Notes under the pieces: model-generated
What the model saw: only the letters and a program-made list of their open reading frames with translations
Database searches by the model: none
What the model was told of the DNA's origin: nothing
Part shown: positions 4,793 through 54,930 of the stretch, piece after piece
Layout: every line of letters starts with the position of its first letter
Position numbering within the stretch: the stretch's first letter is position 1
DNA from: a virus
Reading direction: 5' to 3' (one strand)
IMG/VR virus record: IMGVR_UViG_3300028394_000042
DNA length: 64,000 nt
Made by a program: the position numbers and the translations under genes

Positions 4793-5605
4793 TTAAAATC
4801 CGCCGTAGGTGTGTCGTTTGTCTAGCATGCCCTGAATCTTAGCCGCGCGTTGGCTTACAGCGCCCGGTGTAATTTTCAATTTCTGCGCAATTTCCTGTGT
4901 GCTTGTACGCCGCCGCCCGTTACGCCCGAGCGTCATATCTGCAATGAGTTTATCGGTCGGTCCCAAATCGTCATAGACAAAGTTGAACCACGCATCTGCA
5001 GCGTTGTTCGCGCCGGGAATGCTGCTGGCCATTCCGTCTCCGTAGCTGTCTTCGCTTGTCTCGCGTGTCGTTGTGCCTTCTGCGAGCGGCTGGTTGAATC
5101 GCCTGATTTTTTGAATACGGCGCTTGGACAGGCCGGTGGAATCAGCCAGCTCGTCATCTGTCGGGTCGCGCCCAAGAACGTCGTTAAGTTCTATTTCGTG
5201 TTCGTTCAATCTGGAGAAATCAAGGCCAGCCTGCTCTGGCACGTTGATAATATTTTGCGATTGCGCCGACAACCGCCGAATACCCTGTAACTGTGAAAGC
5301 AAATGCGTGCGGACATTACCCCGCTCTGGGTCAAAACTGCCTAGAGCCTTGAGCGCCATAATTTTTGCCCGCGACTTGATCGTTGGCCCGGCCGTGTTAC
5401 CGGCATAACTCGACACAGCCGTGTCGATTACGGGCTGGATTGTCTTCAACATAGCCGTGCTTGCTTCGGGCGTTTTGTTTGTCTGCCACTGCGCATATGC
5501 GTTGCTGAAATCATCATGCACACCAGCCGGGCGAGAACCAGAAAACGGTCCGCGAATATCGCCAAGAATAGACGGCGCGCCAGTAGTTGTGATTTTGTCG
5601 CTCAT
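4793..5605 (-). CDS. Sigma-70 family factor (divergent)
   Basis: Region 2 ALKALGSFDPERG; INVPE; region 3 LGRDPTDDELADSTGLS; region 4 helix-turn-helix STQEIAQKLKITPGAVSQR. Confidence 0.88.
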   Translation of the reverse strand: MSDKITTTGAPSILGDIRGPFSGSRPAGVHDDFSNAYAQWQTNKTPEASTAMLKTIQPVIDTAVSSYAGNTAGPTIKSRAKIMALKALGSFDPERGNVRTHLLSQLQGIRRLSAQSQNIINVPEQAGLDFSRLNEHEIELNDVLGRDPTDDELADSTGLSKRRIQKIRRFNQPLAEGTTTRETSEDSYGDGMASSIPGANNAADAWFNFVYDDLGPTDKLIADMTLGRNGRRRTSTQEIAQKLKITPGAVSQRAAKIQGMLDKRHTYGGF

Positions 5606-12545: not shown

Positions 12546-12552
12546 GGCAGCC

Positions 12553-12939
12553 TCAATTGTTGTCCGCAACCATTTTTTTGTACCGCTCAATCAATTCGGC
12601 GGTTTCGCTGTCTATTATTGTATCGTTTTGCCCTGTAGATGACGGCGCTGCCGTTTTTGCCCACGGAAACGTTATTTGCCGCAATTCACTGAGTAATTCA
12701 ACTGTTTCTTGTTTAGTCTGTTTGAAACTGTCCTCAGTCAGATTACCGTGAGCCAACAACGCAAGGCGATGCGCGTAAGTATCGCGCAACACCGACAAAT
12801 TTTCTTTTCTCGCTACTTCGGACAGCAACAGCTGGTGCTTTATTCGCCATTTGGTGTTTCGGGGATCGGCACCGGTGTAGTCCATTACACCAGTCGCGGC
12901 AGCGCGCACCATCATCGCTGCTATTCGATCCCTGTCCAA
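12553..12939 (-). CDS. Tail assembly chaperone, downstream (T-like) frame; probably reached by -1 frameshift
   Basis: Frame opens just before the T5 run at the end of the upstream gene; adjacent to the tape measure. Confidence 0.6.
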   Translation of the reverse strand: MDRDRIAAMMVRAAATGVMDYTGADPRNTKWRIKHQLLLSEVARKENLSVLRDTYAHRLALLAHGNLTEDSFKQTKQETVELLSELRQITFPWAKTAAPSSTGQNDTIIDSETAELIERYKKMVADNN

Positions 12940-21188: not shown

Positions 21189-21202
21189 GGCAAAATCCTT
21201 TG

Positions 21203-22528: not shown

Positions 22529-22530
22529 GC

Positions 22531-24453: not shown

Positions 24454-25380
24454 TTACTTGAAGTCAACGCGAGCCAGACCGTTGGTATGGCCGAAAGAGC
24501 CACCCTGTGTCTGGTAGGCAAAGTACTCAAGCATGAAAGCTTCACGACGGATGTACATCGTGGTGGGTTCCAGCTCGTAGTTCTTGCCGATGAACTTGGG
24601 CGAGGCAAACATAAAAAGACTATCGTCGGGGACCAAATCGCGCTTGATAGTCACAATCCAACGGCAGTTGAGGAAGTTAGTTTCCGCCCAGCCGTTCTTG
24701 ATGATGTCCTGCGAGAAGTCACCGCCCATTTCGTCGCGGCCGAACTTCAGCAGCTCCTTGATGGTGATGTTATTCACCAAGCAAGTTTCAACTTCGAAGT
24801 GGCTGGACGTACGGGGCATGACCTTCAGGGCGTCAACAAGGGTCTCACGAGTGATACCGCCGCTGATCTCCTCGTACTGCACATAGCCAGAAGCCGGATT
24901 AGTGGCGCCAGCGGTGGGCAGCACAGCATTGAAGGCAGCAATGAACTTGCTATCTTCTTCAGCCAGCATGTCCTTGATCATGTTGTCCGACAGAACCTGA
25001 CGAATGTCGATCACATACGTCCGCAGCTCGTCGACGTCCTTCACAGCGCGAGGCGACACGATCCGGTCAAACATGACGCGGTAACGTGGGCCACGGATGT
25101 AGAAGTTAATCGGGAGCGTCGCGAACGGAAGCGACACAGCCGCCGGGGAATCGGGTTCCTTGTCCACAACCTTAACGGGCTTGTCAGTATCAACCTGACG
25201 GTCAAGCTCGTCGTTGGTGATGGTCAGCGGGGGCATAATCCGCCGATAGAACCCGTCTTCACGCATCTTGGTGCGCGTGAAGTCGTTAACAGCGTCGATG
25301 GCCTGCTTCTGCATGCCGGGGGTATCGAGCTGCTCAAAAAGAGTCTCATTGAGCAATTGAACTTCTTGCTGAGTGGGCAT
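24454..25380 (-). CDS. Major capsid protein (HK97-like fold), about 308 aa
   Basis: RTKMREDGFYRRIMPP, DELRTY..DIRQVL, DMLAEEDSKF; follows scaffold and decoration genes. Start moved to ATG 25380 (GGAGG RBS). Confidence 0.85.
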   Translation of the reverse strand: MPTQQEVQLLNETLFEQLDTPGMQKQAIDAVNDFTRTKMREDGFYRRIMPPLTITNDELDRQVDTDKPVKVVDKEPDSPAAVSLPFATLPINFYIRGPRYRVMFDRIVSPRAVKDVDELRTYVIDIRQVLSDNMIKDMLAEEDSKFIAAFNAVLPTAGATNPASGYVQYEEISGGITRETLVDALKVMPRTSSHFEVETCLVNNITIKELLKFGRDEMGGDFSQDIIKNGWAETNFLNCRWIVTIKRDLVPDDSLFMFASPKFIGKNYELEPTTMYIRREAFMLEYFAYQTQGGSFGHTNGLARVDFK

Positions 25381-25384
25381 TATT

Positions 25385-25400
25385 GGAACCTCCATGTTCC
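25385..25400 (-). promoter_or_regulatory. ANGGAN hexaloop hairpin over the MCP Shine-Dalgarno (CsrA/RsmA-type site)
   Basis: GGAAC-AUGGAG-GUUCC; matches (A/U)CANGGANG(U/A). Confidence 0.6.
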
Positions 25401-29350: not shown

Positions 29351-30724
29351 TTAGCTGAGTGCGCGGCCTATTTCTTGCGATTCCAGATTGTTCTTCCGGC
29401 TTTCGGCTTTCAGCTTCTCTAGTTCGACCATCTGTTTCACGTCAAAATCAGCGAATTGCCCAGCCTCCAGCCGCTTGCGCAACAGCGACTGCATTGCCGC
29501 GCCGGAGTCCGTAAAGCTGGGCGCCATCTCTGCAATCTGGTTGTAGGCTGATGCAACTTCGTGCGGGTCATAGCCAGAGATTACAGGGTCGTTCAAAATA
29601 AGGTCGTTCAGCACGCCGCGGGACTTGATTTGCTGCAGTTTCTGCTCGTGATCAGCGTCTGACAGTGACGCGTAGGCTTTTTGGCGCTGTGCTGTTGGCT
29701 CTGTCTTCTTGCTCATATCCGGCGGTAAGTCTGAGCCCTGACCCATAATGCCACCCAGCGTGGCCATCGTGTTGCCAAATGACATACCGGGTGTAGGCGC
29801 CGGCGCAGCAGGGCCGGGTTCTTTAGCGGCTGACTTCAACGTCAGCGGCTCGTTTTGCTGCTCAAACATAATTGAGCCTGTAAGAAACTCTGGCGCTGTT
29901 TTCTTCCAGTTGGCCGCCGCAGTCTTCTCGGGCAGCACGTAACTTTGCGCTAAGTTGTACGCAGCAACGTCTTCCAGCACACCTGCAACAAGTCGCACTG
30001 GCAGCAAATCACCAAAGTGCGATTCTTTTGTCGCGGCTTGCTTTTCAACATGCGGGTAAACAGCGGCTACCTTGCGCAGCACCATCTCGCCGTCATTGCC
30101 AAGGCGCCGGCTAACTTCTCGCACAGCGTCACCGAATGTCATGCTGCCGGGTACGCGGAAATAGCTGCACAGCTTTTCCATGCTGGCGGCTGCTTTTTGA
30201 TACGCCGCGCTAGCCTGTCGGCGCAGTTCTTCTGCCGCGCGCTTGTCAGCCATCTTTTTGCTGTAAACACGCTCTGCCGCAGACTTCTCGTCACGGGGCG
30301 GCGGTGTCCATTGATTCGCGGGCAAGGCAACTGTCGCGGCTGCTTGTTTGGTCAGCGCGCTGTTACGCCGGGCAAGAAAGCCAGTTGGCGACACTGCATA
30401 CTCAGTCGACACGATGGACGACTGTGTAACTTCGCCAGCTGTCTTGACATGCTTGGGGTACAGTGCGTCCATGACAACATTGACGTCGGCTAACTGGAAG
30501 TCAGCGGCTTTTTCCAGCGCGTCTTCACCTTGTTCGCGCTGCTTTGTTGTCCGCCCGGTGTTGTAGGCGTGCACCATGAGATTGATGTGGCCAGCCGGGA
30601 TGTTAGACGCTGTGGCACTCTTGATGATTGCGTCGTTCGGGCTGGAGCCGGCGTTGACAAGCTCAGCCGCTTTTTCAATAGCGGCAATCAGCGTCTGCTC
30701 GGCTTGTTTATTTAGTGGCCGCAT
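29351..30724 (-). CDS. Putative internal head protein rich in K-x-A motifs, 457 aa
   Basis: GGAGG RBS; more than 10 K-x-A motifs. Confidence 0.7.
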   Translation of the reverse strand: MRPLNKQAEQTLIAAIEKAAELVNAGSSPNDAIIKSATASNIPAGHINLMVHAYNTGRTTKQREQGEDALEKAADFQLADVNVVMDALYPKHVKTAGEVTQSSIVSTEYAVSPTGFLARRNSALTKQAAATVALPANQWTPPPRDEKSAAERVYSKKMADKRAAEELRRQASAAYQKAAASMEKLCSYFRVPGSMTFGDAVREVSRRLGNDGEMVLRKVAAVYPHVEKQAATKESHFGDLLPVRLVAGVLEDVAAYNLAQSYVLPEKTAAANWKKTAPEFLTGSIMFEQQNEPLTLKSAAKEPGPAAPAPTPGMSFGNTMATLGGIMGQGSDLPPDMSKKTEPTAQRQKAYASLSDADHEQKLQQIKSRGVLNDLILNDPVISGYDPHEVASAYNQIAEMAPSFTDSGAAMQSLLRKRLEAGQFADFDVKQMVELEKLKAESRKNNLESQEIGRALS

Positions 30725-31655
30725 CGGTAGCCTCCGGGTAACGCAGTTCTTGAATCATTTTTTGATCTTGCACGTCGCCGCCAACAGCAAGGGTCATGAG
30801 TTCGTCATTGCGTAACTCAGCAGCGCCATTATCAAAAGGTAACATTTTTAGGGTCGAAGAATCCAGTTTTGTACCCACGCGGAACGGCAGGGCTGCAAGC
30901 ATAGCCCCGATGTTCTCGACAATTGTGCTGTGTGCTTTACTGGCGTTTGCAGTTGTACGCTCAATTTCGACGTATTTAACAAACGAGTCGATGAGCGGCA
31001 GTTGCGTGTGCGAGTTAACCTGCACGGTCAACGCCGCAAGCGCTGCCTTGTACTTCATTGTATTAACAGCGAAGTCTTGGAAGAAACCAGCCACGGCGTC
31101 AGGCGCCTCTGGCTTAGCGGTAGGCGTAAACTTGCCGATAATGGCGCTTAGCGTGTGCTCGCCACCGTGATAGCCCATAAGCTTCCACAGCAGGTCATAT
31201 TGGCGCTCTGATAGGCCGCGGGTAACAGCGTCGGCAAGGACCACGTTCAAGATGTAGTCCGTATGCGCCATTTTCTCGCGAATGTCAAAGAAGACATGCG
31301 CGAAAGCTGCAACAACGCTTGGCTCTATGCCTAATTTGGCCGCAATGCTCTCGTCTGTTTCGCCAGCCAGAATGCGGGCCTCGATAGCCCAGCGTGTTGG
31401 GGCTTTGTCTTCTATCCAGATTGAGTGGGCCCAGAAAAGATCCCTGTCGCGCTGCAGCAACGCGTAAAGCGCAGCCGGGCGACTGTTAGCCAGATCAAAA
31501 TGGCGCTTGAGCTTGACGGCCCTGCGGATCCACGTAAAGCCCTCTGCGCCGTCTAGCGTGCGCGAAGCCCGTGGCCCGCCCTTGTCGATCTGTAGCGCGC
31601 GCAACCAGCGCCAGTGCGGCGCGCGTTGCGGGCTATCGCGGAAATCATTGAGCAT
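30708..31655 (-). CDS. Hypothetical protein with possible helix-turn-helix, 315 aa
   Basis: ESIAAKLGIEPSVV; overlaps both neighbours. Confidence 0.7.
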   Translation of the reverse strand: MLNDFRDSPQRAPHWRWLRALQIDKGGPRASRTLDGAEGFTWIRRAVKLKRHFDLANSRPAALYALLQRDRDLFWAHSIWIEDKAPTRWAIEARILAGETDESIAAKLGIEPSVVAAFAHVFFDIREKMAHTDYILNVVLADAVTRGLSERQYDLLWKLMGYHGGEHTLSAIIGKFTPTAKPEAPDAVAGFFQDFAVNTMKYKAALAALTVQVNSHTQLPLIDSFVKYVEIERTTANASKAHSTIVENIGAMLAALPFRVGTKLDSSTLKMLPFDNGAAELRNDELMTLAVGGDVQDQKMIQELRYPEATDAATK

Positions 31656-32053
31656 TAGCGCAGCGTCGGGGTGTCAACGGTTACAGACAACACGAAGTTC
31701 TTGGCCCCAGACCCCGCTGGCGTGATCTTCAGATAAAGATATCTTTGCGGGTTTGTGGGCGTTCCGTCACGATTGAGATAAGACAGTGACAGGTCATTGT
31801 TTTCAGAAACAGCCACATTGTTAGCGGCCGTAAACGTAGCAAGGTGGAACACGCTGGCGGGCAGGGTGCTATTTGGCTCGGTGTCCTGCTTGCTGGTATA
31901 CAAGTCGGCCGTAAACCCGGCGTTTGTGCCGGAAGCCTGCGCCAAGGTAGCCCGCTTCAGGATACCGCGATGCGGCATCGGGATAGCGACGACAGTGGCA
32001 GTAGCGCTTGTAGCCGTAAACGTCTTTTCGCCGGACCAAACTGTACTGGGCAT
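31655..32053 (-). CDS. Small beta-rich putative virion protein, 132 aa
   Basis: T/A-rich; C-terminal RYLYLKIT. Confidence 0.7.
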   Translation of the reverse strand: MPSTVWSGEKTFTATSATATVVAIPMPHRGILKRATLAQASGTNAGFTADLYTSKQDTEPNSTLPASVFHLATFTAANNVAVSENNDLSLSYLNRDGTPTNPQRYLYLKITPAGSGAKNFVLSVTVDTPTLR

Positions 32054-32064: not shown

Positions 32065-34446
32065 TTACGAGTTAGCGACAGAGCTGAGATCGACGTCCTG
32101 CGCGGCTTCTTCTGGGTACGCCTCAATCGTCTTCTGCTTCAAGAACAGAATCACGTCGCCCAGCATTTCAAAAGCATTGCGCAGCGAATCTTCCAGCTCC
32201 GGCATGTCAGACTTGCCGTACCGCTCAGCGAACCGGTCGCCGTGCCAGTAAAACATGAATAAGATACGGCCGAGCTTGTCGAGGCCCTTGGTCAGATCGC
32301 CCATGTAACGATCAACCATACCGTCATCGCGGACAGCCTTGAGCATGCTGCCGATCATTGCCGTGTCGAACACCTCGCGCTGACCGCTTTGGGCTGCGTC
32401 TGTGATCGACCGGATGTCTTTCTTGTCCAGCAGCGTGTTGGGGTTGTAAATACTGCGGTCTGTGTTGCTGGCGCTCATACTCGACACGGGCACGCCCACG
32501 TCGATACCCAGCTGGGTTGGCACACTTGTCCCCATGATGGTTTCGCCGCCCATCACCGGACCCGGGTCGGTCGGGGCGTTAGGCGCGCTGTTAATCATCA
32601 TTGGCCCGCCGTACGGGTCGGCGTACTTGATGCGACCGCTGTATTTGCGCTTCGCGGCAGCCTGCTTCAGAATGTCGCGAGCGGCCGTTTCACGCAGACC
32701 GTGAGTCTGCACCAGCGATACAAGGCCGCTCATGGGGCCCATGCGCTCGCCGTTGATCTCCACCGTCGTGCCGTTGTGGTACACAGTCAGCGCCGCCGTC
32801 TTGTTCAGCAGCGACAGCTGTGCGTCAGCCAGATTGCCCGGCATCAGCGGCGAATTTTTGCTTTCGCCGCAACCACACGCATTTTGACCGGCTTCTTCGG
32901 CGTCAGCTACGTCATCTTCGCCGGGGGAGCACTTTAACGACTTGAAACCCTCTGGCACGAAGATATCGCCCATGCTCGACCGCAGCTTGGAGCCCTTGCT
33001 GGAGCCGAGATGGATACGCACACCGTCGCGATACTTGTCGTAGTTCAGCTGATCCGTGTAGCAGCAGCCGCTAATGTGGCCGCGGGGTGGATGCTTGCTG
33101 TGGTCTTCCAGATGGACTTCGTATGATGTCGTCCCGTATTGGCTTTCGCCGTACTCACGAATCATGCGCACAGGCACAGTGGCGTCACCGCTCTTGTTCA
33201 AGAGCATAACGCGGCCCCTACCAGACGGCAGGCTTGTGGCTTCGGGCAGCGCGTCGAACCACTCGTCAAACTCTTCACCTTCAATGCGCGACAGCGCAAA
33301 AACTTGGTCAGCCCGCGTGTTAATCCAGTCTGGCGTGCCTTCAACGCGCACAACCGTAATGAAGTCAGCGCGCTTGGCAGCACCTTGTGGATGCACAGCA
33401 ACGTAACAGCGCTCGACGTTACCCGGCTTGACAAGGATCTCGTACAGGCCAGACGACGATGGCGTGAACAGCTTCTTCTCAACTTGAATGTCGTACGGCA
33501 CCGAAACGTTGTCGCGGTCCCGCTCGTCCTTGATCAGCACGCCGTCCCGCAGCAGTTTCTCTTGATCGTCTTCACTGTAACCGGCAGGTAGCTTAGTTTG
33601 GATCGTCAGATCAAACGTAATAATCTTCAGCCCCTTTGCAGACGCTGGCTCGGCTGGCGCCTCAGACAACACGCTGGCCACTTTTACCTGACTCTCGCGA
33701 GCCTTGGCCAGTGCAACAGCTTCCTTAATGATATCTAAACCGTGAAACTCCGAGATAGCTTCGGCCACAGCTGGCGCATACTGGCATGTTTTGACCAGCA
33801 TGTTCAGCGTTTCAAGCCGGGCTTCTTTCAGAAACTTCTTCAGGTCCATCAGCTGACCAATTTCAGCAAAGACGGCATTTGTGTTCTGCGTAGCGGTCTT
33901 GGCAAATGGCGCCATGACAGCAGTGATCATCTCTTTGAGCGTCGGCTGTGCGGAGCCGAACTTAGCCGGGCTGCGCGAAAGCTGCGTAAAATCAGGGTTA
34001 CGCTGGCCAAACTGCGAAAGATTCTTGTCGATGCCGCTGCCGAGAATATTGGGCTTGCGGTTCAGCAGGTAGTTAATCCAGTTCTCTTTCAACGGCACGA
34101 AAACATCCTGATTCTTGATGTACAGGAGTTCGTGGCCCTTGAGATCGCCGTTCAGAAAGAACACAGGCGCGTACAGCCACTGCGAACCAAGCTTGAACGC
34201 AAACACACCAATAGCCTTGGTGTTTTCGCGGTTCCGGTCGAGCAGCTGAAAACCGATTTCGTGCTCAAGGAGCTTGGGCGCCGAGTCGCGGAGATAAGCG
34301 TGCGCCAGATTGCTGAACGACTGCTCAAATGAGGTGTCGTCGCCCCGGCCGCCGATGTCAGCTTGTTTTGTCTGGCTTCGGTCATGCGACCGAACGACTT
34401 TCAGCCAATGCTGCCACGACGCTTCTTTGCTTTTCTTGTTGTACAC
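32065..34446 (-). CDS. Large putative head/virion protein, about 793 aa
   Basis: Start moved to GTG 34446 (GGAGG); multiple K-x-A motifs. Confidence 0.7.
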   Translation of the reverse strand: MYNKKSKEASWQHWLKVVRSHDRSQTKQADIGGRGDDTSFEQSFSNLAHAYLRDSAPKLLEHEIGFQLLDRNRENTKAIGVFAFKLGSQWLYAPVFFLNGDLKGHELLYIKNQDVFVPLKENWINYLLNRKPNILGSGIDKNLSQFGQRNPDFTQLSRSPAKFGSAQPTLKEMITAVMAPFAKTATQNTNAVFAEIGQLMDLKKFLKEARLETLNMLVKTCQYAPAVAEAISEFHGLDIIKEAVALAKARESQVKVASVLSEAPAEPASAKGLKIITFDLTIQTKLPAGYSEDDQEKLLRDGVLIKDERDRDNVSVPYDIQVEKKLFTPSSSGLYEILVKPGNVERCYVAVHPQGAAKRADFITVVRVEGTPDWINTRADQVFALSRIEGEEFDEWFDALPEATSLPSGRGRVMLLNKSGDATVPVRMIREYGESQYGTTSYEVHLEDHSKHPPRGHISGCCYTDQLNYDKYRDGVRIHLGSSKGSKLRSSMGDIFVPEGFKSLKCSPGEDDVADAEEAGQNACGCGESKNSPLMPGNLADAQLSLLNKTAALTVYHNGTTVEINGERMGPMSGLVSLVQTHGLRETAARDILKQAAAKRKYSGRIKYADPYGGPMMINSAPNAPTDPGPVMGGETIMGTSVPTQLGIDVGVPVSSMSASNTDRSIYNPNTLLDKKDIRSITDAAQSGQREVFDTAMIGSMLKAVRDDGMVDRYMGDLTKGLDKLGRILFMFYWHGDRFAERYGKSDMPELEDSLRNAFEMLGDVILFLKQKTIEAYPEEAAQDVDLSSVANS

Positions 34447-34516
34447 GGCCACCTCCATGCGGCACTGCAGACAATCGGACACTGCTAATAATTTACAGTG
34501 TTTCAGCCCCTATATC

Positions 34517-37500
34517 CTACTGTAATGGTTTAGGCGCTTCCAGCGGCTTCCAGCCACTCGTTGTGCCAGTTACGCCAAACTGCTCGCCGTGAGCCAGCGC
34601 TGGGACATAGCTACTACCGGCCGAGTCGCTGCTCAGCCCGCGGTGCACGCTATTCAACAGGCCGCGCTCCTGATAAGAACCGAGCATTCGCGTCATCCAG
34701 TCAGGATCGTTCGAGATATTCGACATGCCGCGCACCATCTCTGGCTCAAACGGCGGCGGAGCTTTATGCGCTTGAATACTGTTAATGCCGTACTTGTTCA
34801 AATTTGTGACGACATTTTTACCAATCTTTGTGCCGATTGAATAGTGCAATACTGGCTGCTCAAGATAATGGCCAGTTAACTCACTCGGTCGGCCGGCGAC
34901 AGCGCCAGTTCTAGGCGTCCAGCCGCGCTCCAAAACAGAGTACGGAACAATGTCGTCGGGCGAATATTCACCCTGCTCGTCTGTCATGCGCACGTGGTTA
35001 ACCAGCCCGCGCGAAAGAAGCTCGATGTTTCGCCGGTGCGCTGGAATACCACTGTTTTGCATAACTTGCCGCATGGCTTGCACAAAGTACCGCCGGCCTT
35101 CACCAATGCCCTTGTGCTTAACGACTTCAGACGGGTTTGGCATGCCGTCAGACAACGAGTCGCCGGCCTCAAGTGTGTCGCCGCGCTTTACAATCACCTC
35201 GCGCTCAGTCGGCACGTAGTGATCCTGCCCGTTGATCTGGACATAATGCCCGCCCTGTGGCGCTGGCCGAATACCCTGAACTTGGCCGTCTGTTTGAGCG
35301 TGCGTTGCGCCGCTTGGATACTTTTTCGGCACCTGCACTAGCGCGTTTAGCGCCTTGAAACCAGAAATAGCGCCAGCGCCGCCCACGCCGCCAGAGTGCT
35401 TTGATGAAATCTGCGACTGCGTGACCGGCTCAGAATTAGAGACAACAAGCCCGTTTTCCAGTAAAAACAAATGATCCGAATGCGCAATGTATATGTCGTA
35501 TGTCGGCCTGACGCCCGCGTCTTCTTCACGAACAAACCGCGCCCGTGTTGAGTCGTTTGTCTTTTTTGCCTCTACAACAATCTGCATTAGTTTTTCGTGT
35601 TTTACGCCGGGAATATAAAAATCTGCCAGTTTTTGTACCATGTCCCCGGCGTTGATTGTGAACACATACATGGGTCGAGCATTGTCGGCCTTCTTTTGCG
35701 ACAGGCGCACAGCAGATCCGTAAATACCAAAACGCACCGCAAGAAGCTCTTTAATCCCAACAATTAATTCGCGGCTTGTGGCTCCAAACCCAATGCCATT
35801 GCTGTGTTCGTTTTTAATCACGTAGCCATCAGTGGCAAGAATTCCAGCAATATATGCACGTATTGACGCGTTTGACCACGACCATATTGTGCGCGGCAAC
35901 TGTTTTTCGTAGGAATGACAACCCCATAAACCCTCGCCGCTCAGCCAATGCTTGAGCCGATTACGGTACTGCTTATTGTCAGTTTCTTTCATGTACACAG
36001 AATCTTCATCACGAATTCGATATTCGGGGTGCGCGCCTGTCAAACTAAAACCCAGCGGACGCAATAACGCCGGTAAGTCATCGGCTAGCTCTTTGTCATA
36101 ACACGTAAATCGCACAGCGTTCTCAGTTGTCAGGCAGCCGTCGCCAGTCAGGATACCGGCCAATAACGCGTACGGCTCTTCGCGCGTATCTGTGTCATCA
36201 AAACTTGTCGCGAGCTTAGCGCAAATATAGTCATGCGCGTTTGGCGGTTGAAAACCAAGCGGGCGCGTAGCTATGGCGTCAAAGTACGCCAGCCGGTTAG
36301 CGGCAGCTTTGTTAGTGCGAACAACAACTTCAGTCAGAATTTTGTGCTCACGCGTGCCGATAACTGACAGGTAGTCTTCGTCGTTTACGGCGCCTGTGCC
36401 GCGGCGATACAGCACACGTACGCACGATTTATCGCCGCTGTACTGCTGCGCCAGCACAGGTACCGGGCAGACAACGCCAGAAATTGAGCACCCCAGCACA
36501 ATGTCACCCGCAACGATGTCCTCAATCTTTTTCACAGACCCGTCAGCCATGCGTACGCGCGTGCCTGCGGCTAAACAGAGCGCCTGCGCGGCGGCGATTC
36601 CGACGTAGTCGCCAATCGGCGGGAGCCGGCCTTTTTCGCGGTAGCCGACGTCTTTGGCGTAAACGCCGCCGTCTTCAGGACCGCCAGTAATAGGGCTGCG
36701 GACTAAGATATCTTTAACGCCCGACTGCCGTAAGTCCTGCAGGATTTTGCCCGTAAGCCGCGTGTTGCGCTTGTAGCCGCCAGCCGCGCGCGACAGAAAC
36801 GCACCTTCGTTGTCCGGGTCGTCTACTTCGGTCGGCATGCCGCGCTCTTCGGCCGTCCGTAAACGCTCGGGATCGTCCTCGTCGTCATGCGTAACAAGTA
36901 GCCTGTGCGCCATTTGCGTAAGCTGCTTGCCGTAAAACCCGGCGTCAGCCGTGGCGGTCTTGAGGTCGATAACGCCTTTGCGCGTACCGAACGCGCCGGC
37001 AAAATACTCGACCGGCGTCAAACCAGCACCGTAACCGCGCAACACGGGAATTGGAATTGGCTCGCCGCGGTGGTCTAGGTACTGCATGTCAGCGCCAATC
37101 AACGAGTTCAGCTGGAACTTATTGCCGACGCCACTGCCGAGAATCTGATGGGCTAACGGGTTATCCTGCCCCTGCGCCTCGGTAAATACTTTCTCGACCA
37201 GATCGCGCTGCGCGTTTGACGCAAGTTCGAGCAACTTGAGGTTCTTCTGCTTTTCGGTCGACTGCCGGTCGCTCAAAATCTCGTGCATCGCCGCGTGCGT
37301 CTTTATCTGCGCGTTACGTGCCGCCAGTGTTGGCCGAATGTCGTTCAAACCAAAAGACAACCCGTTTGTAGAGTAACCAGCGTCCCGGCCCACGTCGTGC
37401 AGCGCCTTCATCACCTTTTTGTATTTGTCAGGGTGCTGTTCGGCTAGTTGAGTGGCCAACGTGCCCATCGTTTTCTTTGTCAGCACGCGCTCGTAGTCAC

Positions 37501-37558
37501 GCATTTCAGGCGGCAAAGCTTCGTTGATCAGAACTTGACCAAGCGTAGTTTTCAGCAT
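34517..37558 (-). CDS. rpoC: RNA polymerase beta' subunit, C-terminal half, with intein
   Basis: TTLGQ; GLTPVEYF...GTRKG.ID...TADAG (bridge helix); VGIAAAQAL|SEPVTQ..SKHSGG (trigger loop); RRNIELL. Probable start ATG 37558. Confidence 0.92.
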   Translation of the reverse strand: MLKTTLGQVLINEALPPEMRDYERVLTKKTMGTLATQLAEQHPDKYKKVMKALHDVGRDAGYSTNGLSFGLNDIRPTLAARNAQIKTHAAMHEILSDRQSTEKQKNLKLLELASNAQRDLVEKVFTEAQGQDNPLAHQILGSGVGNKFQLNSLIGADMQYLDHRGEPIPIPVLRGYGAGLTPVEYFAGAFGTRKGVIDLKTATADAGFYGKQLTQMAHRLLVTHDDEDDPERLRTAEERGMPTEVDDPDNEGAFLSRAAGGYKRNTRLTGKILQDLRQSGVKDILVRSPITGGPEDGGVYAKDVGYREKGRLPPIGDYVGIAAAQALCLAAGTRVRMADGSVKKIEDIVAGDIVLGCSISGVVCPVPVLAQQYSGDKSCVRVLYRRGTGAVNDEDYLSVIGTREHKILTEVVVRTNKAAANRLAYFDAIATRPLGFQPPNAHDYICAKLATSFDDTDTREEPYALLAGILTGDGCLTTENAVRFTCYDKELADDLPALLRPLGFSLTGAHPEYRIRDEDSVYMKETDNKQYRNRLKHWLSGEGLWGCHSYEKQLPRTIWSWSNASIRAYIAGILATDGYVIKNEHSNGIGFGATSRELIVGIKELLAVRFGIYGSAVRLSQKKADNARPMYVFTINAGDMVQKLADFYIPGVKHEKLMQIVVEAKKTNDSTRARFVREEDAGVRPTYDIYIAHSDHLFLLENGLVVSNSEPVTQSQISSKHSGGVGGAGAISGFKALNALVQVPKKYPSGATHAQTDGQVQGIRPAPQGGHYVQINGQDHYVPTEREVIVKRGDTLEAGDSLSDGMPNPSEVVKHKGIGEGRRYFVQAMRQVMQNSGIPAHRRNIELLSRGLVNHVRMTDEQGEYSPDDIVPYSVLERGWTPRTGAVAGRPSELTGHYLEQPVLHYSIGTKIGKNVVTNLNKYGINSIQAHKAPPPFEPEMVRGMSNISNDPDWMTRMLGSYQERGLLNSVHRGLSSDSAGSSYVPALAHGEQFGVTGTTSGWKPLEAPKPLQ
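35435..36577 (-). mobile_element. Intein with LAGLIDADG homing endonuclease, 381 aa
   Basis: Starts CLAAGTRVRMADG; block B GTREHKIL; LAGILTGDG and IAGILATDG; ends TYDI...HLFLLENGLVVSN, followed by Ser(+1). Confidence 0.95.
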
Positions 37559-37559
37559 G

Positions 37560-37799
37560 TTAAGGCGTCCAAACAAGATTCTGAATTGGTTTTGGCTTGA
37601 AGTCTGTAACTACAACTGTCTTATCAACGCCTAACGCGCGTAACACGTTATGGAAATCTTTTTCGCCCGGCGTTGAGTACACAATAGCTTCGTCAACTTG
37701 AATAGCCACAAAGATCGGATTGCCCATGTCATCTTCGACAATGATGCTGTGGGCCTTCTGTTCGACTGGCTGCAAGTGATGCTGCGTCTTAACTAGCAT
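37560..37799 (-). CDS. Small hypothetical protein between the RNAP genes, 79 aa
   Basis: Tightly coupled to both neighbours. Confidence 0.7.
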   Translation of the reverse strand: MLVKTQHHLQPVEQKAHSIIVEDDMGNPIFVAIQVDEAIVYSTPGEKDFHNVLRALGVDKTVVVTDFKPKPIQNLVWTP

Positions 37800-38532
37800 T
37801 GCCTGACAGACTCCGGCTAAGCGCCATAACGGCCGCGGCTTTTAACTGCATCTGAGTTGGGCCCGTATACGACGGGTCTTCAAACTGCACCAAGTCAGCC
37901 GGCACCGGTCGGCCGATGTACGACGCAGACTTTGGTTGCTCTGCGGCAAGCCACCACGCGCCCTTAACTGCGCCGGCGTTTGGATCAGCGCCCGGAGGCA
38001 GCGGCCCGCCCGGAGGAAGCGGCCCGCCCGGATCCTGCGGGCCAGCCGGGGCATTTGGATCTTGCTGTGCGCCAGCATTGGGGTCTTGCTGGGGCGGCGG
38101 CGCCATTGGCCCGCCCGGCAATGCAGACTCAGCTGGCGGGGCGCCGTTGCTGCCGGGAGGAAGTACCAACGACTCAGGCGGCACTTGTACATTCATGGCG
38201 TTCATGATCGCCGTAAGCTGCTGCTGCATGTTGTACAGCCGGAAGTCGATCATCTTCATCATGTCTTCAGGCTTGGGTTTCTGCGCTGCAGGCGCAGCCG
38301 CCGGGGCCACTGGCGCAGCAGCGGCTACGGGAGCCTGCGGTTGCATAGCGCTCATTGCGGCGGCATTTGGGTCCATCGGCGGCGCGCCGCCCATCGACGG
38401 ATCAGCTGGAGGTGCCGCGCCGGCCATTGCCGGATCCATTGGAGGTGCGCCGCCCATCATAGGGGGGCCGTCAGCCTGCTTCGCAAAATACGCGCGGGCA
38501 ATCGAGATCAGTTCTGGATTAACGGTGTGCAT
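37789..38532 (-). CDS. Pro/Ala/Gly-rich low-complexity protein between the RNAP genes, about 247 aa
   Basis: Start moved to ATG 38532 (GGAGG); GGAPPMDP, QQDPNA and GGPLPP repeats; K-x-A motifs. Confidence 0.75.
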   Translation of the reverse strand: MHTVNPELISIARAYFAKQADGPPMMGGAPPMDPAMAGAAPPADPSMGGAPPMDPNAAAMSAMQPQAPVAAAAPVAPAAAPAAQKPKPEDMMKMIDFRLYNMQQQLTAIMNAMNVQVPPESLVLPPGSNGAPPAESALPGGPMAPPPQQDPNAGAQQDPNAPAGPQDPGGPLPPGGPLPPGADPNAGAVKGAWWLAAEQPKSASYIGRPVPADLVQFEDPSYTGPTQMQLKAAAVMALSRSLSGNAS

Positions 38533-38554
38533 AGAAACCTCCATGTTGAGCACG

Positions 38555-41500
38555 TCATGTATTATCTTCCACAATATGTACCGGGGTGTCCACTTCTATT
38601 TCCCCGCGGTGATAGGCGTGAACAGCGTCTTTCTTTGTGCGATACACCCGCGGTTTAGCTTTGTTGTTGATCCGACTAGCCGCCAAATACAGGCCAGTCT
38701 GATAATCTTTGTTCGGCACGTAATGCGCTTTGAACGACGAAGCCGAGAATAAATTCTTGCTCGGCAGCATTTTCTCGACGGCTTCTTTTGCGGCGTCTTC
38801 GGTGCTGGGCACGTGATACTGCATAGCGTCGCCGTCAAAATCTGCGCCGAAACCCTTGGTGATAACCGGGTTAACTTCCATGACTTTGTTCTTGGTGAGC
38901 CGCGGATAGAACGCCATCATGCCATACCGGTGCAACACAGGCGCGCGGTTAATCACAATTGGCCGGCTGTTCATTTGCGTGTTCAACTCGTCTGCGGCCG
39001 CTTTGCTCTTGTCAACAACAGCCTGTAACGCCTGCATTCTTGGTAAGCCGCGGCGCACAAGGCCACGCACAACGAATGGCTTGTAGATATCCCACGCTTT
39101 TTCTTCTGGCAAGGCTACTTCGTCCATGTCCAAGTCTGGGTTGGGCGTAATGACAGCACGCCCGACAAGATCGACTGTGCTGCTGAGAAGTTTACGCTGC
39201 ATTGTGCCGTACTTGGGGGAGTTGCCAAATACGTGCGACAGGAAACCTTTTACGTTACGCTCGACGTTTTTGGGCTGCTGCGGATCACCCAACCCAGTCA
39301 CGGCCTTCAGCGAGTCGTATACGCCCAGACGCTCGTCGCTATATTCAGACAGTGCACCAGATGCTTCTTTCAGCGCGCCGTTAGCGTCCAGCAGCTCTTT
39401 GTACAGATAGTTAGCGTCAGCCACGAGCGGTAGTTTCTTGGGGCCCATCGTAGATACGGGCCTGAAGATTGGCGGCAGTACGGGGACTTTAGTCAGCATC
39501 CAGTCTTTCGGATGCACGCCGGTAGCCTGCGAACTCTTGAGGAAACCCAATCGGCGCACAGCCGCGTCACGAAGAGTACTCCGCCCGCTTTTGATATCTT
39601 CACGGGCTTGCTCTATGGCGTGCGGGACGTTTACTTTGGCCAAGGCTTTTTGAATTGCCTGCGGGCCAGTTGAGTCAAACAACGTCGCTTGGCCAGCCAG
39701 TACGCCGCGGAACTGCTTCTCTGTCAGACCCAACACGCGCCTAATCGGGTCTTCCATGATTGGGTTGGGCATTGGCTCGTGCAGCGTAATCTTCGACCAG
39801 CGATTGCCGCCGTGTCCGCCTGTCAGCGCCTCGTCAAACAAGCCGCCCGGAACTGGCTTCATGCGCCCCTTCCAGTCCACAGTCTCAGAGTTCTGGATTT
39901 CGCGCGTACCAGATAGCTGATCGACGTCTTTATCCGTCATCGCCATGATGTTCGTCTTTGTGCCTTGCCGCGTCACGTTGATTCCAGACGCGCGCAGCTG
40001 GCCGACAAACTTCTCGTACACATGCGGGATCTTCGGAAGCGGCGGGGCGTAACCAGCCATAAACTGCGACCAGTAATCAGGATTAGCTTGCCCGCGCACC
40101 ATTTTGGCATCACGGATAACTTTGCCGGCACCGTGAGACAACAGCGCGCCAAGGTCCAGCATGCCGACGCGCTTTGCACCTTCCGAGCCGCCCTTTGCTG
40201 GCGTACCCTCGGCGGTGTAACTTCCCATTGACCGGCCCTGCGCCTTGGATTCGCTGGTGTGGTGCAGCTTCATGAAGAACCGGCTGCCAGTTAACACACC
40301 CGGAATCTTGCGGCCTGTTTCAGGGTCAAACAGGTCTTCTTTGTCAGATAGGCCGTGCTTGTCCAACTCACTCTGGGCAAAATCAATCAGACTGTTTTGG
40401 TTGTCGAAGTCTTTGATCTTGTACGGCTTACCGGTCTTGTCCGCTACTTTACCCAGCGTAGCCTCAATGACCTGCGCTGGATTTACGCGGCTGATTAAAC
40501 CAAGTGGACTAACCAGCACTTCAAATGGGTTGCCGTCTTTATCATGCGGCATCTGGTGATCTGGCACAATTTCGGCAATCACACCCTTGTCGCCAAATCT
40601 ACCTGTGAGCTTGTCGCCAACTTCCATGACCGACTGGTTTTTTACAACAACGCTCACGCCCTTGTCTGTGTGCTCTACGTCGGTAACAACCCCGGGCGAA
40701 TGATGATCCCACGTCACGGTTTCGTCTGTGAAACTACCAGCACGACCGCGATGCACTTTGCCGTACACCGTGTCTTTTTTCTTCGCGACAAGCACAAGGG
40801 GATCGCCGTAGTTAACAGTTGTGCCCTTTTGAATAGCGCCTTTGTCGTCAAAGTTGTCGAGCAGCTTCTTGTCGTACACAGCGGGAAACAAGCTGGTAAA
40901 AGCTTTCTTGCCTACGTGCGTGTTCTCGTCCCATTGCGCTTCATGCTGGTACATGTGCTCGCTGGTCAGACGCTTGGCCGCACTCTCTGAGATCACGCTG
41001 GCGTCTTCGTAGTTCTTGCCTCTAAACGGCAGATAGGCCACGCGCATGTTCAAGCCAAGTGCTGCGCTACCCTTGTCGTCCGTGAAGTTAGACCGCGCAA
41101 GAAGCTGGCCGGGTTTTACAACGTCGCCGGGCTGAACCATCGGCGTCTGGTGTAAAAACGTCTTCCGGTTGTACGGCATGTCGTTGTACAGCTCGATAGT
41201 CTTCTTGTTGCCGTCTTTATCGCGCAGCACAATTCCATCAGGAGACACCGACACAACCTGCCCGTGTGCTTCTGCGCGCGTAGCTCCAAGCCGCGTACCC
41301 ATCTCGTCTTCGTGCGATGTGGTAGGGTCGTCTGCTGTGGCTGATTGGACATGCGGGGCCTGCGCGCCAACGAGCGGCAGTGCTTGGGTGAACATGCGCG
41401 AACCCATGATGACGCGGTGGCCTTTCACCATGGTCTTCATCGGCACCATGTTGCTCAAGCTAGACAGCGTTGAGTCCATGTGCGGTAAGCTGTATTGCGT

Positions 41501-42955
41501 CTCTTCACGCGGCACATACTTCAGCCGGCCGTTGACAAGCGCAGCGACCACGGGCAACTTGTTGTGCTCTTCGCCCGGGAACACAAGCGGCGTGTCGGCC
41601 AGCTCTTGCGGCGTTTTGAAGATCTTTTCGCCGGTTTTGTTATCTATAACGGGCGTATAGATCTTGCCGTCAGCGCCCTTCATGGCACCGCGGGCAAAAC
41701 GCATGTCTACGCCGACTTTTCCGCTCTCTGGTGTGCGGAGATAATCGATGAACCCAAGGTGGCTGGGCTGGACGCTACGTGATTCAGCGGGCACAGCATC
41801 GAGCGACGATATGCCGCCTTCGCCCATGCGCGTAACGCGGGTCTGGTGGTCGTAAATCTCAGCCGGGTTGATTTCTTCCAAGCTCGACCCAAGGCCAGAG
41901 CCAATTAAGGCAGCTTGAATAGACTTGTCGAACACGCTGCTGGGAATGTGGTCTACGGACTTCTTGGCCGTTGCGCGCCACAGAAGCTTATTCAGGCCCA
42001 TGCGGTCTTTGCCAAAACGCTCCGCAATCAGATCTTCAGGGCCAGCGACAGACTGAAACACCATGTTGTCACGGTCGTCTGGGTCTGACTCGCGCCTGTT
42101 CACAGCCAACAGCTTTTTGGTGATGGCTAAAATAGTTTCAGGGTTAATAGTCGTGTGCCCTGTGCCGAGCGTGCGGGTTGTGACTTCGGGATCGAGTTGC
42201 GTCTTGGCAAACTCGGCCATGATTGCTTGCTGCTTGGCTACAGAATCAGCGCCCTCGACTTGTTTGTTCACAAGCCGCTGATAGAGCTTATCCAGCGTGC
42301 CGGCGTCGCCCTTCTCCATATTGACTGCGGTGATGTCGTTACCCCAGTGCTCGCGCAGCTGAGTGTCAGTGACGCCCATTTGCTTGAGCAGCGGCATAAG
42401 CGGAATTTGCGCCTGCCCGATGCTGATCTTGAACACGCCCGTAGCAGGGTCGAGAAAATACCGGTGGGAGCGGCCTTTACCGGGAAGCGTGTTAACGTGC
42501 GCTTCGATTTCGCCGTTGTCTTTTTCGCGGGTAAATACACCGGGGCGCAACCGCATCTGGTGCGCTAGCGTGTACTCGACGCCGTTGTTGACGAACGTAC
42601 CGGAGTCTGTGAGATACGGCACATGGGCAATCGTCGTCTTACGCTGGCCAACTGTCTCGCCGGTTTTGTTATCTATAAGATTCCACGTGCCCTGCATTCG
42701 GCGCGACAACGAACTTTTTGTCAGAACTGCGCGCTTCTGATCAACGCGCGTAAACGTTTCTGGGCCAGCGTAACTAACGTCGGCAAGGTTCAACGAGTAC
42801 AGGTCGTTTTGTACCGGTTTGATCGTCTGTGCGCTTTTCAGCGCCTGATCAAAGATATTCTGCCGCATACCAGACACGTCCCCAAACGCTCGCATGGCGG
42901 GCGCGGGAAGTGGTTGCGGCGGAGTAGTAAGCGGCGGCAGTTCGGGCGCTGGCAT
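38555..42955 (-). CDS. rpoB: RNA polymerase beta subunit fused to the N-terminal (catalytic) half of beta', 1466 aa
   Basis: Beta motifs GTFVNNG, TPESGKVG, NYEDA, GDKLTGRFGDKG, PLGLISRVN, KLHH; then beta' motifs GLFD, VPVLPPIFRP, VDLVGRAVI, NRAPVLH, GADFDGD. Confidence 0.96.
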   Translation of the reverse strand: MPAPELPPLTTPPQPLPAPAMRAFGDVSGMRQNIFDQALKSAQTIKPVQNDLYSLNLADVSYAGPETFTRVDQKRAVLTKSSLSRRMQGTWNLIDNKTGETVGQRKTTIAHVPYLTDSGTFVNNGVEYTLAHQMRLRPGVFTREKDNGEIEAHVNTLPGKGRSHRYFLDPATGVFKISIGQAQIPLMPLLKQMGVTDTQLREHWGNDITAVNMEKGDAGTLDKLYQRLVNKQVEGADSVAKQQAIMAEFAKTQLDPEVTTRTLGTGHTTINPETILAITKKLLAVNRRESDPDDRDNMVFQSVAGPEDLIAERFGKDRMGLNKLLWRATAKKSVDHIPSSVFDKSIQAALIGSGLGSSLEEINPAEIYDHQTRVTRMGEGGISSLDAVPAESRSVQPSHLGFIDYLRTPESGKVGVDMRFARGAMKGADGKIYTPVIDNKTGEKIFKTPQELADTPLVFPGEEHNKLPVVAALVNGRLKYVPREETQYSLPHMDSTLSSLSNMVPMKTMVKGHRVIMGSRMFTQALPLVGAQAPHVQSATADDPTTSHEDEMGTRLGATRAEAHGQVVSVSPDGIVLRDKDGNKKTIELYNDMPYNRKTFLHQTPMVQPGDVVKPGQLLARSNFTDDKGSAALGLNMRVAYLPFRGKNYEDASVISESAAKRLTSEHMYQHEAQWDENTHVGKKAFTSLFPAVYDKKLLDNFDDKGAIQKGTTVNYGDPLVLVAKKKDTVYGKVHRGRAGSFTDETVTWDHHSPGVVTDVEHTDKGVSVVVKNQSVMEVGDKLTGRFGDKGVIAEIVPDHQMPHDKDGNPFEVLVSPLGLISRVNPAQVIEATLGKVADKTGKPYKIKDFDNQNSLIDFAQSELDKHGLSDKEDLFDPETGRKIPGVLTGSRFFMKLHHTSESKAQGRSMGSYTAEGTPAKGGSEGAKRVGMLDLGALLSHGAGKVIRDAKMVRGQANPDYWSQFMAGYAPPLPKIPHVYEKFVGQLRASGINVTRQGTKTNIMAMTDKDVDQLSGTREIQNSETVDWKGRMKPVPGGLFDEALTGGHGGNRWSKITLHEPMPNPIMEDPIRRVLGLTEKQFRGVLAGQATLFDSTGPQAIQKALAKVNVPHAIEQAREDIKSGRSTLRDAAVRRLGFLKSSQATGVHPKDWMLTKVPVLPPIFRPVSTMGPKKLPLVADANYLYKELLDANGALKEASGALSEYSDERLGVYDSLKAVTGLGDPQQPKNVERNVKGFLSHVFGNSPKYGTMQRKLLSSTVDLVGRAVITPNPDLDMDEVALPEEKAWDIYKPFVVRGLVRRGLPRMQALQAVVDKSKAAADELNTQMNSRPIVINRAPVLHRYGMMAFYPRLTKNKVMEVNPVITKGFGADFDGDAMQYHVPSTEDAAKEAVEKMLPSKNLFSASSFKAHYVPNKDYQTGLYLAASRINNKAKPRVYRTKKDAVHAYHRGEIEVDTPVHIVEDNT

Positions 42956-42959: not shown

Positions 42960-43853
42960 TCACCCGATTTGTGATTGGGCAGCCTGCTGCTTTAACGAGG
43001 CAATTTCGTCGGGGTCTACGTATGTTGGCAAAATTCCAGCAATTCTCGCTTTTGACTTAGCAGCGTCTTCAACAGCCTTGGCGTGCGCCCGTTCTTTTGC
43101 GCGGTCGTACATGAGCTTGGCGGCAAGCCCGCCCATACCCAGCCCAGTGGCAACATATGCGCCGCCAACAGCCCCCGGTACGCGCTTGGCTACATCTGTA
43201 ATGTCATTCAGCCATTGCGGCCACGCGACTTTCTCTGCGGCAGCTTTCTCGACAGCCGTGTCGTACACGCCGTCTAAGTTGTTCTTGGCGCTGCGGCCCA
43301 GTAACGCGTCGTGATATTCTTTTTCGGCAGCGTCGATTTCAGCTTGCCGGTTTTGCTGCTTTTTACGTTTGTGCAACATGCTCACAAGCCCAGTCCCGCC
43401 GGCCAATCCAAGCGCGCCAGCGCCAAGAGTAGCGCCTGTACCGAAAGACGACCGAATAATGTTTGGGTCGTACGTACCCGGAGACGTCTGGTCGATAATT
43501 GGGGAAAGCGGACGCAGCAGATCGATAATCTTGGACGGCAGCATGCCGCCAATGCCTTCAGTTATGTTGTCGTAAATTCCGGCAAACTTGGCTGGCTCTT
43601 CTTCTTCCTTGCGCTTCGCGCGCTCGCGGGCAGCCTGCGACAGACTTCGAGCAAGATAATACAAGCCAGCAGCGCCAACGCCAACACCCAGCCCAGTCCC
43701 GCCAGCGCGCAGAATACGGTCGCCCCAGAAACGCTTAAGATCGGGCTCTGTAGGCGCGCTAGCGCCGGATACAGCGGGTTTTGCTGCATAGTTGCCTGCT
43801 TGTGCGCCGAAAGTGGAGTCCATGCCGCCAATTGCTTGCTTCTCTCGCTGCAT
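42960..43853 (-). CDS. Gly-zipper helical protein, putative ejection protein, 297 aa
   Basis: Three G/A-rich hydrophobic segments, each downstream of a K-x-A motif (EKQA, AKFA, EKVA). Confidence 0.65.
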   Translation of the reverse strand: MQREKQAIGGMDSTFGAQAGNYAAKPAVSGASAPTEPDLKRFWGDRILRAGGTGLGVGVGAAGLYYLARSLSQAARERAKRKEEEEPAKFAGIYDNITEGIGGMLPSKIIDLLRPLSPIIDQTSPGTYDPNIIRSSFGTGATLGAGALGLAGGTGLVSMLHKRKKQQNRQAEIDAAEKEYHDALLGRSAKNNLDGVYDTAVEKAAAEKVAWPQWLNDITDVAKRVPGAVGGAYVATGLGMGGLAAKLMYDRAKERAHAKAVEDAAKSKARIAGILPTYVDPDEIASLKQQAAQSQIG

Positions 43854-43865: not shown

Positions 43866-44216
43866 TTATTTTGCGGGCGGTACTAGGCCGTATACCTGAT
43901 ACCACTCCATCCAAATACGGTAGTGTTTTTGTTGTTCGTCCCAGTTATCGGTTCGTTTAACGAGCCGATACCAGCCGTTCACTAGTTTATCACTTATGTC
44001 GTCAAACATCGCCTTGTCGACAGGATCCCACAGCAAAAACATACGCGACTTAAAATCGCGACGCTCGTCTAGGTTCTCAACCTCTTCTTGTTTCAGGTCG
44101 CGATGCGCAGAGTCGGTCGCCAATACGGGCAGCCCGTCTATTGTGCCGGGCCACTGTAACCGTAAATCGCCGTGCTGCGCGCCACCAATTTCGCCGTGAT
44201 ATTTACTCAGGCTCAT
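43866..44216 (-). CDS. Hypothetical protein, 116 aa
   Basis: Packed minus-strand ORF. Confidence 0.7.
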   Translation of the reverse strand: MSLSKYHGEIGGAQHGDLRLQWPGTIDGLPVLATDSAHRDLKQEEVENLDERRDFKSRMFLLWDPVDKAMFDDISDKLVNGWYRLVKRTDNWDEQQKHYRIWMEWYQVYGLVPPAK

Positions 44217-54929: not shown

Positions 54930-54930
54930 G

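Follow-up and report, generated by a model that had tools for sequence, protein, structure and literature searches.

A 64,000-nucleotide stretch of viral DNA (hereafter the window; part of the 120,049-base IMG/VR virus record IMGVR_UViG_3300028394_000042) carries between positions 34,517 and 42,955 the genes of a multisubunit RNA polymerase (RNAP) whose mature chains are devoid of cysteine. The record has a completeness of 59% (CheckV), and its complete relatives measure 204-205 kb, with direct terminal repeats in one of them; the source is an uncultured phage with a genome of about 200 kb. Almost all genes of the window lie on the minus strand. Three features make up the polymerase locus:

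38555..42955, minus strand: RNAP beta fused to the N-terminal half of beta' (beta-beta'N), 1466 residues, no cysteine; assigned by Pfam, PDB alignments and cysteine count.
34517..37558, minus strand: C-terminal half of beta' (beta'C), an intein-bearing precursor of 1013 residues from its ATG and 631 residues when mature; assigned by Pfam Rpb1_5 and the public gene call.
35432..36577, minus strand: class-1 intein of 382 residues with a LAGLIDADG homing endonuclease, residues 334-715 of beta'C (1019-residue numbering), at the trigger-loop base (AAQAL/SEPVTQ).

The fused chain matched the Pfam families RNA_pol_Rpb2_6 (PF00562; E=8e-53, residues 563-914) and Rpb1_2 (E=3e-24), and was aligned by beta chains of the PDB over residues 80-1016 (best E=4.5e-70) and by beta' chains over residues 1069-1462. 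Its segment GADFDGD (residues 1370-1376) aligns with NADFDGD of beta', which places the catalytic motif DFDGD at nt 38828-38842, and the trigger-loop base is present in beta'C. Together, beta-beta'N and beta'C constitute a bacterial-type two-barrel RNAP and the sole RNAP of the phage. One Rpb2_6 match was obtained in each of three complete relatives, corresponding to a single RNAP per genome, and one sigma factor was detectable per genome. For the alpha dimerisation domain PF01193, neither this record nor the three complete relatives gave a match at E<=1, while 14 of 14 control genomes were matched, although a very divergent alpha may be missed by such a search. The beta-beta' fusion may take the place of an alpha scaffold. 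For beta'C, an initial annotation made from the sequence alone had assumed a start at 37576, which corresponds to an upstream TTG; the public call begins at the ATG at 37558.

In the 2097 residues of the two mature chains no cysteine was found; the beta and beta' subunits of Salmonella, counted for comparison, contain seven and 15. The initial annotation had described beta-beta'N as cysteine-free over its 1466 residues and had restricted the cysteines of beta'C to the intein, and both counts were reproduced, as the eight cysteines of beta'C are located at residues 334-553 (1019-residue numbering), every one within the intein. Its description of the two zinc sites also held. The N-terminal beta' zinc-binding domain is absent: some 30 residues have been lost from GLFDEALTG to a HIELA-like segment, with the junction GGLFDEALTGGHGGNRWSKI at nt 39788-39847. 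The local alignment with Salmonella beta' stops at GLFCARIFG/GLFDEALTG, just before Cys70/72/85/88, and HMMER alignments to solved beta' chains pick up again at about residue 141-156. At the second zinc site (Cys814/888/895/898 in E. coli and Salmonella), alignment to mycobacterial beta' revealed that the ligands are changed to D, G, Y and D. The former site lies at nt 36872-36895 (HDDEDD) and 36644-36700 (GGPEDGGVYAKDVG), and the replacement of its ligands is kept in beta'C relatives. Three further cysteine positions are exchanged as had been noted (rmCpietpe to fiDylrtpe, yqCglp to deValp and lvCtayna to viTkgfga). In every cellular RNAP that was aligned the second zinc site is kept, and to our knowledge this is true of cellular enzymes generally, in which the site is tied to enzyme assembly.

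The intein matched LAGLIDADG_3 (E=1e-15) and Hom_end_hint. It starts with CLAAGT (Cys1), contains the block TREH, ends in VVSN with a C-terminal Asn and is followed by Ser at position +1; its penultimate residue is Ser and not the usual His. By these features it belongs to class 1, and splicing of beta'C is predicted. The boundaries are exact because 117 insert-free relatives carry the empty site AAAQALSEPVTQ, which reads AAAQAL/SEPVTQ. The beta-beta'N family is crowded with inteins: most of its representatives at 50% identity clustering are 1800-3350 residues long and bear up to five inserts of 300-500 residues (for example P0147, 3350 residues). As these inserts, with 2.2% cysteine, reside inside cysteine-free exteins, only Ser or Thr can stand at their +1 position.

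The missing cysteines could be put down to chance, or to the founder composition of a cysteine-poor lineage, and nothing but the low cysteine content of many phage proteins favors this. Given the cysteine rate of the genome (1.24%), the probability of finding none in 2103 residues is about 5e-12, and at the rate of Salmonella beta/beta' it is 5e-8. The distribution of cysteine among proteins is bimodal, as 14 of the 61 proteins with 200 or more residues are cysteine-free where 1.6 were expected; in a complete relative, 15 of 100 proteins are cysteine-free (1.9 expected). Among 120 homologues of beta-beta'N with 74-100% identity, 108 had no cysteine, four had one, and in eight the cysteines were almost all inside an intein. 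More distant members were collected with residues 270-1466 of beta-beta'N as query, which yielded 150 cluster representatives of 43-59% identity. Their query-aligned parts (exteins) contained 175 cysteines in 217,890 residues (0.08%), part of which are probably intein-junction residues, compared to 1828 in 84,483 residues (2.16%) in inserts of at least 100 residues (inteins). The comparison of intein and extein is an internal control, since both belong to one gene with one mutational background and the purge is confined to the mature protein. Cysteine was absent from all of 117 intein-less beta'C homologues and from all of 120 sigma homologues (0 in 32,400 residues). When orthologues of the window genome and of the complete relative G002 are compared, their cysteine fractions correlate (Spearman rho = 0.84), and the cysteine-free state is concordant, with 16 pairs at zero in both and four discordant (Fisher p=5e-13). 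A state that persists over 43-85% identity while inteins in the same genes hold 2.2% cysteine leaves chance or founder composition with a practically negligible probability. The loss of cysteine is the outcome of strong, protein-specific and family-wide selection. Methionine is higher in the cysteine-free set (3.2% vs 2.2%), and therefore the pressure is specific to thiols; an economy of sulphur, or a general avoidance of oxidation, was rejected on the same ground.

The cysteine-free proteins are not limited to the polymerase chains. The further features of the window that are relevant here are:

4793..5605, minus strand: sigma-70-family factor, 270 residues, no cysteine, in the baseplate/tail operon; Pfam Sigma70_r3 above the cut-off and a PHROG sigma match.
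8739..12590, minus strand: tape-measure-like protein, 1283 residues, no cysteine; assigned by size and by position between sheath and baseplate genes only, with no family match.
24454..25395, minus strand: major capsid protein, 313 residues, two cysteines; ESM Atlas score of 0.98 to HK97-fold capsid clusters and 31% identity (E=5e-40) to D69 0275.
30708..32053, minus strand: two cysteine-free proteins (315 residues with a helix-turn-helix-like stretch, and 132 residues), downstream of the gp218-like structural gene.
32065..34482, minus strand: 805-residue homologue of the virion structural protein Arash gp218/D69 0266, nine cysteines, directly downstream of beta'C; found by tblastn/blastp.
37560..37799, minus strand: 79-residue protein between the RNAP genes, no cysteine; 73% identity in a relative.
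37789..38574, minus strand: Pro/Ala/Gly/Met-rich, low-complexity and probably disordered protein of 251-261 residues between the RNAP genes, no cysteine by translation; likely ATG start at 38544.
42960..43853, minus strand: 297-residue protein with three glycine-zipper membrane-like segments, no cysteine, 4 nt upstream of the RNAP gene; cysteine-free also in two relatives.
43866..44216, minus strand: 116-residue protein, no cysteine, within the same tight gene block.

The sigma factor, the tape-measure-like protein and the glycine-zipper protein had been listed as cysteine-free before, and each contains none. The tape-measure-like ortholog of a relative is also cysteine-free (1554 residues). 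An SNF2 helicase (Pfam SNF2 and Helicase_C) is encoded immediately beyond the window in the record, where it is cut by the contig end; in G002 the helicase has 727 residues and no cysteine. About ten small or unassigned proteins complete the set. The initial annotation had named equally cysteine-poor cytoplasmic phage enzymes as the finding that would speak against it, and the ordinary enzymes of this genome and of the complete relative were cysteine-normal. In the window genome, 13 cysteines were counted in the 640 residues of the terminase, ten in the 495 of an AAA ATPase, eight in the 511 of a 2H phosphoesterase and four in the 344 of volactin, and in G002 16 in the 1055 of DNA polymerase A, eight in the 717 of SbcC and seven in the 555 of a ResIII helicase. 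Across the clade, terminase contains 2.0% cysteine and DNA polymerase 1.5%. The description of sheath, neck and baseplate proteins as cysteine-rich was overstated, since the sheath-like protein has 1.25% and most others 0.4-2.3%, the norm of the genome; only fibre and collagen-like proteins reach 2.5-3.5%. Collagen-repeat proteins differ among themselves: one outside the window (G000:C1:34585-38655) has 43 cysteines in 1356 residues and its counterpart in the relative 71 in 1596, and another of 786 residues in G002 is cysteine-free (G002 loci 18010-22800 and 125371-127731).

These counts bear on the possibility that the enzyme is an ordinary intracellular RNAP for middle or late genes, which is not functionally packaged and lost its cysteines and zinc for a reason on the side of the cell, such as thiol-reactive or oxidative stress, a host factor that targets cysteines or zinc sites, or independence from the zinc supply. 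A phage with a single RNAP per genome must use this enzyme inside the cell in any case, and its composition could serve that phase. Yet other intracellular enzymes of the same genomes hold 1.2-2% cysteine, methionine is not depleted as a general oxidation or sulphur economy would require, and the cysteine-free set includes tape-measure-like and glycine-zipper membrane-type proteins, which have no role in transcription. We consider an exclusively intracellular enzyme unlikely.

The RNAP genes are embedded, together with homologues of virion proteins, in a tight same-strand block that extends from 46525 to 30708 with intergenic gaps of at most 34 nt. The earlier placement of the RNAP inside a head-morphogenesis cluster was correct insofar as this block is concerned and the major capsid gene is found 9 kb downstream of the RNAP genes, but in a complete relative the portal gene is located about 70 kb from them. 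The 805-residue neighbour (best ESM Atlas score 0.76, by look-up) had been considered as portal; this was dropped, as the homologue of the Arash and D69 portal sits elsewhere in the complete relative. The 297-residue protein upstream of beta-beta'N is a candidate ejection or membrane-conduit protein. An alpha-like subunit was rejected for this gene, whose sequence is that of a glycine-zipper membrane-type protein, and no alpha dimerisation domain was found in the genomes. The Pro/Ala/Gly/Met-rich protein had no Pfam or PHROG match; its position between the RNAP genes is kept in relatives at 49-57% identity. The 315-residue helical protein (30708-31655, minus strand) has a helix-turn-helix-like stretch (ESIAAKLGIEPSVV) and no family match; it could be another transcription factor or could resemble a small terminase. 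Scans for sigma-70 promoters and intrinsic terminators between 29 and 48 kb remained at the level of shuffled sequence (10 vs 7.5 and 29 vs 26).

Searched against PHROGs, 20 window proteins gave one match to sigma, a weak one to sheath and one to a family whose function is unknown, and Pfam named few structural genes. Relative to the record G000, four single-base differences were found in the window (28732, 41401, 50998 and 58670), none of which creates a cysteine. Through one of them, residue 519 of beta-beta'N is Ser and no longer Ala, and one replaces a stop codon of G000 by Lys, which leaves a 486-residue gene (27878-29338) intact in the window. Elsewhere in the window, the phage encodes an actin-like protein, volactin, in full length (PF25216, E=1.5e-62) at 53919-54953 (minus strand), and a matrixin-type zinc metallopeptidase fused to a peptidoglycan-binding domain at 47880-48692 (minus strand), which may be a lysis or entry enzyme. 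The 207-kb relative L013 has an additional cysteine-free gene of 309 residues (17068-17997) between a 0270-like (protease-like) gene and a 457-residue head-region gene, which is not present in the window.

Among cultured phages, Salmonella phage Arash and the Vibrio phages D69, D148 and D181 are nearest, with 32% identity over 97% of beta-beta'N. Arash gp206 and gp216 have the same organization of a beta-beta'N fusion and a separate beta'C, with the zinc-binding domain deleted alike, and the C-extein of beta'C is 26-29% identical to Arash gp216 and D69 0264. The sigma factor of the window is the ortholog of Arash gp10 (30% identity, E=3e-20), with orthologues of the baseplate genes gp12-14 adjoining it, and the cysteine-free SNF2 helicase is the ortholog of Arash gp217 (E=6e-53). 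In the Arash report, mass spectrometry of gradient-purified virions identified gp206 with 3516 spectra, the most of any protein, gp216 with 1210, the helicase gp217 with 1148 and sigma gp10 with 467 at 100% coverage, and its authors suggest a role in early transcription (PMC10585845). The earlier proposal that the RNAP is packaged with its own sigma is thereby borne out in part, namely for the homologous RNAP, sigma and helicase in Arash virions. Arash gp206 has one cysteine in 1525 residues (one or two in the beta-beta'N chain of Arash and D69), gp10 and gp217 have none, and Arash gp216 and D69 0264 have exactly four each, which are the ligands of the second zinc site. The other sigma factor of Arash, gp196, has three cysteines and was not found among those rows of the virion mass spectrometry table that were covered (PMC10585845). 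That the virion-detected sigma is cysteine-free and the other one is not further argues against a purely intracellular enzyme.

Some differences separate the two lineages. Arash and D69 keep the four cysteines of the second zinc site, which read D/G/Y/D in the window RNAP; the window beta'C bears an intein and two small genes split the RNAP genes, unlike in Arash; and the Arash portal gene directly precedes the RNAP gene, whereas it is about 70 kb away in the window clade. The family thus shows a trajectory: every member examined has lost the zinc-binding domain and all dispensable cysteines, and the last zinc site was kept in the Arash/Vibrio branch and lost in the window clade.

Taken together, the explanation that we favor, and regard as probable, is that the purged RNAP set would be packed in the virion, delivered with the DNA into a Gram-negative host and would start transcription there. 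RNAP, sigma and the RapA-like SNF2 helicase would be made late, together with the structural proteins, and beta'C would be matured by protein splicing, giving a two-chain enzyme. An RNAP made only with structural genes would, if packaged, benefit the infection that follows, as in N4 and phiKZ. The set would then enter the host along with the DNA, and the delivered RNAP would initiate phage transcription. On this way free thiols and Zn-Cys clusters would be liabilities, owing to the oxidising exterior, the Dsb enzymes of the periplasm and the loss of zinc upon partial unfolding in the narrow tail channel. With the purge of cysteine from all these proteins, both beta' zinc sites were lost.

Several points weigh against packaging and delivery. 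Late expression is deduced from gene packing alone, and the promoter and terminator scans stayed at background. Virion presence was measured for Arash only; for the window phage, packaging is inferred, as are ejection, the unfolded state, a part in early transcription and why cysteine is avoided. The Arash list is permissive, as 116 of 272 proteins are on it, with ribonucleotide reductase and a kinase among them, and the authors allow for carry-over of abundant proteins (PMC10585845), which also lends weight to the intracellular alternative. Arash and D69 retain the second zinc site, so that packaging does not need zinc loss.

To place the composition of the enzyme in context, cysteines were counted in other virion RNAPs. 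The initial annotation had stated that the virion RNAP of phage N4 lacks cysteine, and a direct count agreed (gp50, 0 in 3500 residues). The N4 ejection proteins gp51 and gp52 contain none in 644 and 150 residues, and N4 replication enzymes have 1.1-1.4%. Suppression of cysteine is conserved in the ejection operon of the Schitoviridae, for which passage through the Dsb-containing periplasm was proposed as reason in the DEV paper (PMC11445570). The other papers, which deal with N4, with ejection proteins at large or with the RNAP of crAss-like phages, contain no statement on cysteine. The tape-measure-fused virion RNAP of P23-45 has no cysteine in 5002 residues, on a low cysteine background, and in the crAss-like phage phi14:2 two cysteines were counted in the 2180 residues of gp66 and one each in the 1421 and 1797 residues of its cargo neighbours. 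The virion RNAP of phiKZ speaks against our favored explanation and for an intracellular enzyme, since it is not cysteine-free: its 2614 residues include 16 cysteines (0.61%), a depletion of only about two-fold relative to the non-virion paralogue with 33 in 2850 (1.16%; p=0.04), and it retains a cysteine cluster like that of the second site. Because of these 16 cysteines, freedom from cysteine is neither necessary for an ejected RNAP nor proof of one; the signature fits an ejected enzyme and is suggestive without being diagnostic. In the non-virion phiKZ RNAP, gp55 has a cysteine pattern like that of the zinc-binding domain (C58/60/73/76), and its virion counterparts gp178 and gp180 have no cluster of this kind. 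In phiKZ too, virion and non-virion enzymes may thus differ by the loss of this domain.

Zn-Cys clusters are redox-labile. The RNAP could accordingly be packaged and have lost cysteine and zinc not on account of unfolding or periplasmic transit, but for its shelf-life in the oxidising environment of an extracellular virion, where thiol oxidation, disulphide cross-links and oxidative release of zinc would be avoided during storage. The same cysteine bias in P23-45, a phage of a thermophile, is in line with this. Methionine, which is prone to oxidation as well, has a raised and not a lowered share; capsid, sheath and fibre proteins, which face the outside, retain or even accumulate cysteine; and N4-like phages confine the bias to the ejection operon (PMC11445570). 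All of this renders protection during storage improbable as the cause.

In a wider form of the packaging and delivery explanation, the whole cysteine-free set of around 15 proteins, roughly 7,000-8,000 residues, would be delivered. A complete sigma-dependent holoenzyme and the RapA-like helicase would pass, at least partly unfolded, through a contractile tail alongside the tape-measure and glycine-zipper conduit proteins and refold in the host without zinc and, since beta and beta' are fused, without an alpha scaffold. We put this forward tentatively, as somewhat short of an even chance. If it is correct, the enzyme would be the first natural multisubunit RNAP devoid of structural zinc and also the first sigma-using RNAP to be packaged; we found no paper that describes a cysteine-free or zinc-free multisubunit RNAP. 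If packaging itself is correct, sigma-dependent holoenzymes would join the N4-type, phiKZ-type and crAss-type enzymes as virion cargo, and zero cysteine would be a cheap sequence signature for predicting injected proteins of uncultured phages, although phiKZ limits the trust in it. A large and abundant phage clade without the second zinc site, the zinc-binding domain, thiols or alpha shows what a two-barrel RNAP can spare, and a naturally cysteine-less two-chain RNAP is usable for structural and labelling work.

Compared with cellular enzymes, the RNAP of the window has neither the two zinc sites nor the alpha dimer, which are kept in those that were sampled. The break in beta' is close to the cyanobacterial gamma/beta' split, as the fusion's C-terminal portion aligns with gamma and beta'C with cyanobacterial beta' from about residue 48. 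Natural beta-beta' fusions occur in Helicobacter. The virion RNAP of phiKZ (gp178, gp149, gp180 and gp80) resembles the window enzyme as a two-barrel multisubunit polymerase without alpha that co-occurs with an SNF2-type helicase; it is bacterial-type, made late, packaged and ejected for early transcription (PMC7598289, PMC7824862). In phiKZ, beta and beta' are divided into four to five chains, a second, non-virion RNAP exists and no sigma is used, whereas the window phage has one enzyme, a sigma factor, the beta-beta' fusion and no cysteine. With N4 gp50 and the ejection proteins of the Schitoviridae it shares the complete suppression of cysteine in the RNAP and its partners, which in N4 are packaged and co-ejected. 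N4 gp50 is a single-subunit T7-like enzyme of a podovirus with an unrelated fold, so that the likeness is one of composition and proposed life history and not of homology. The cysteine-free, zinc-site-free state is thus real and the packaging proposal is borne out in part; the window RNAP is best described as a virion-type enzyme of the Arash family in which the loss of cysteine and zinc was completed, with suppression of cysteine in ejected proteins as already published for N4-like phages.

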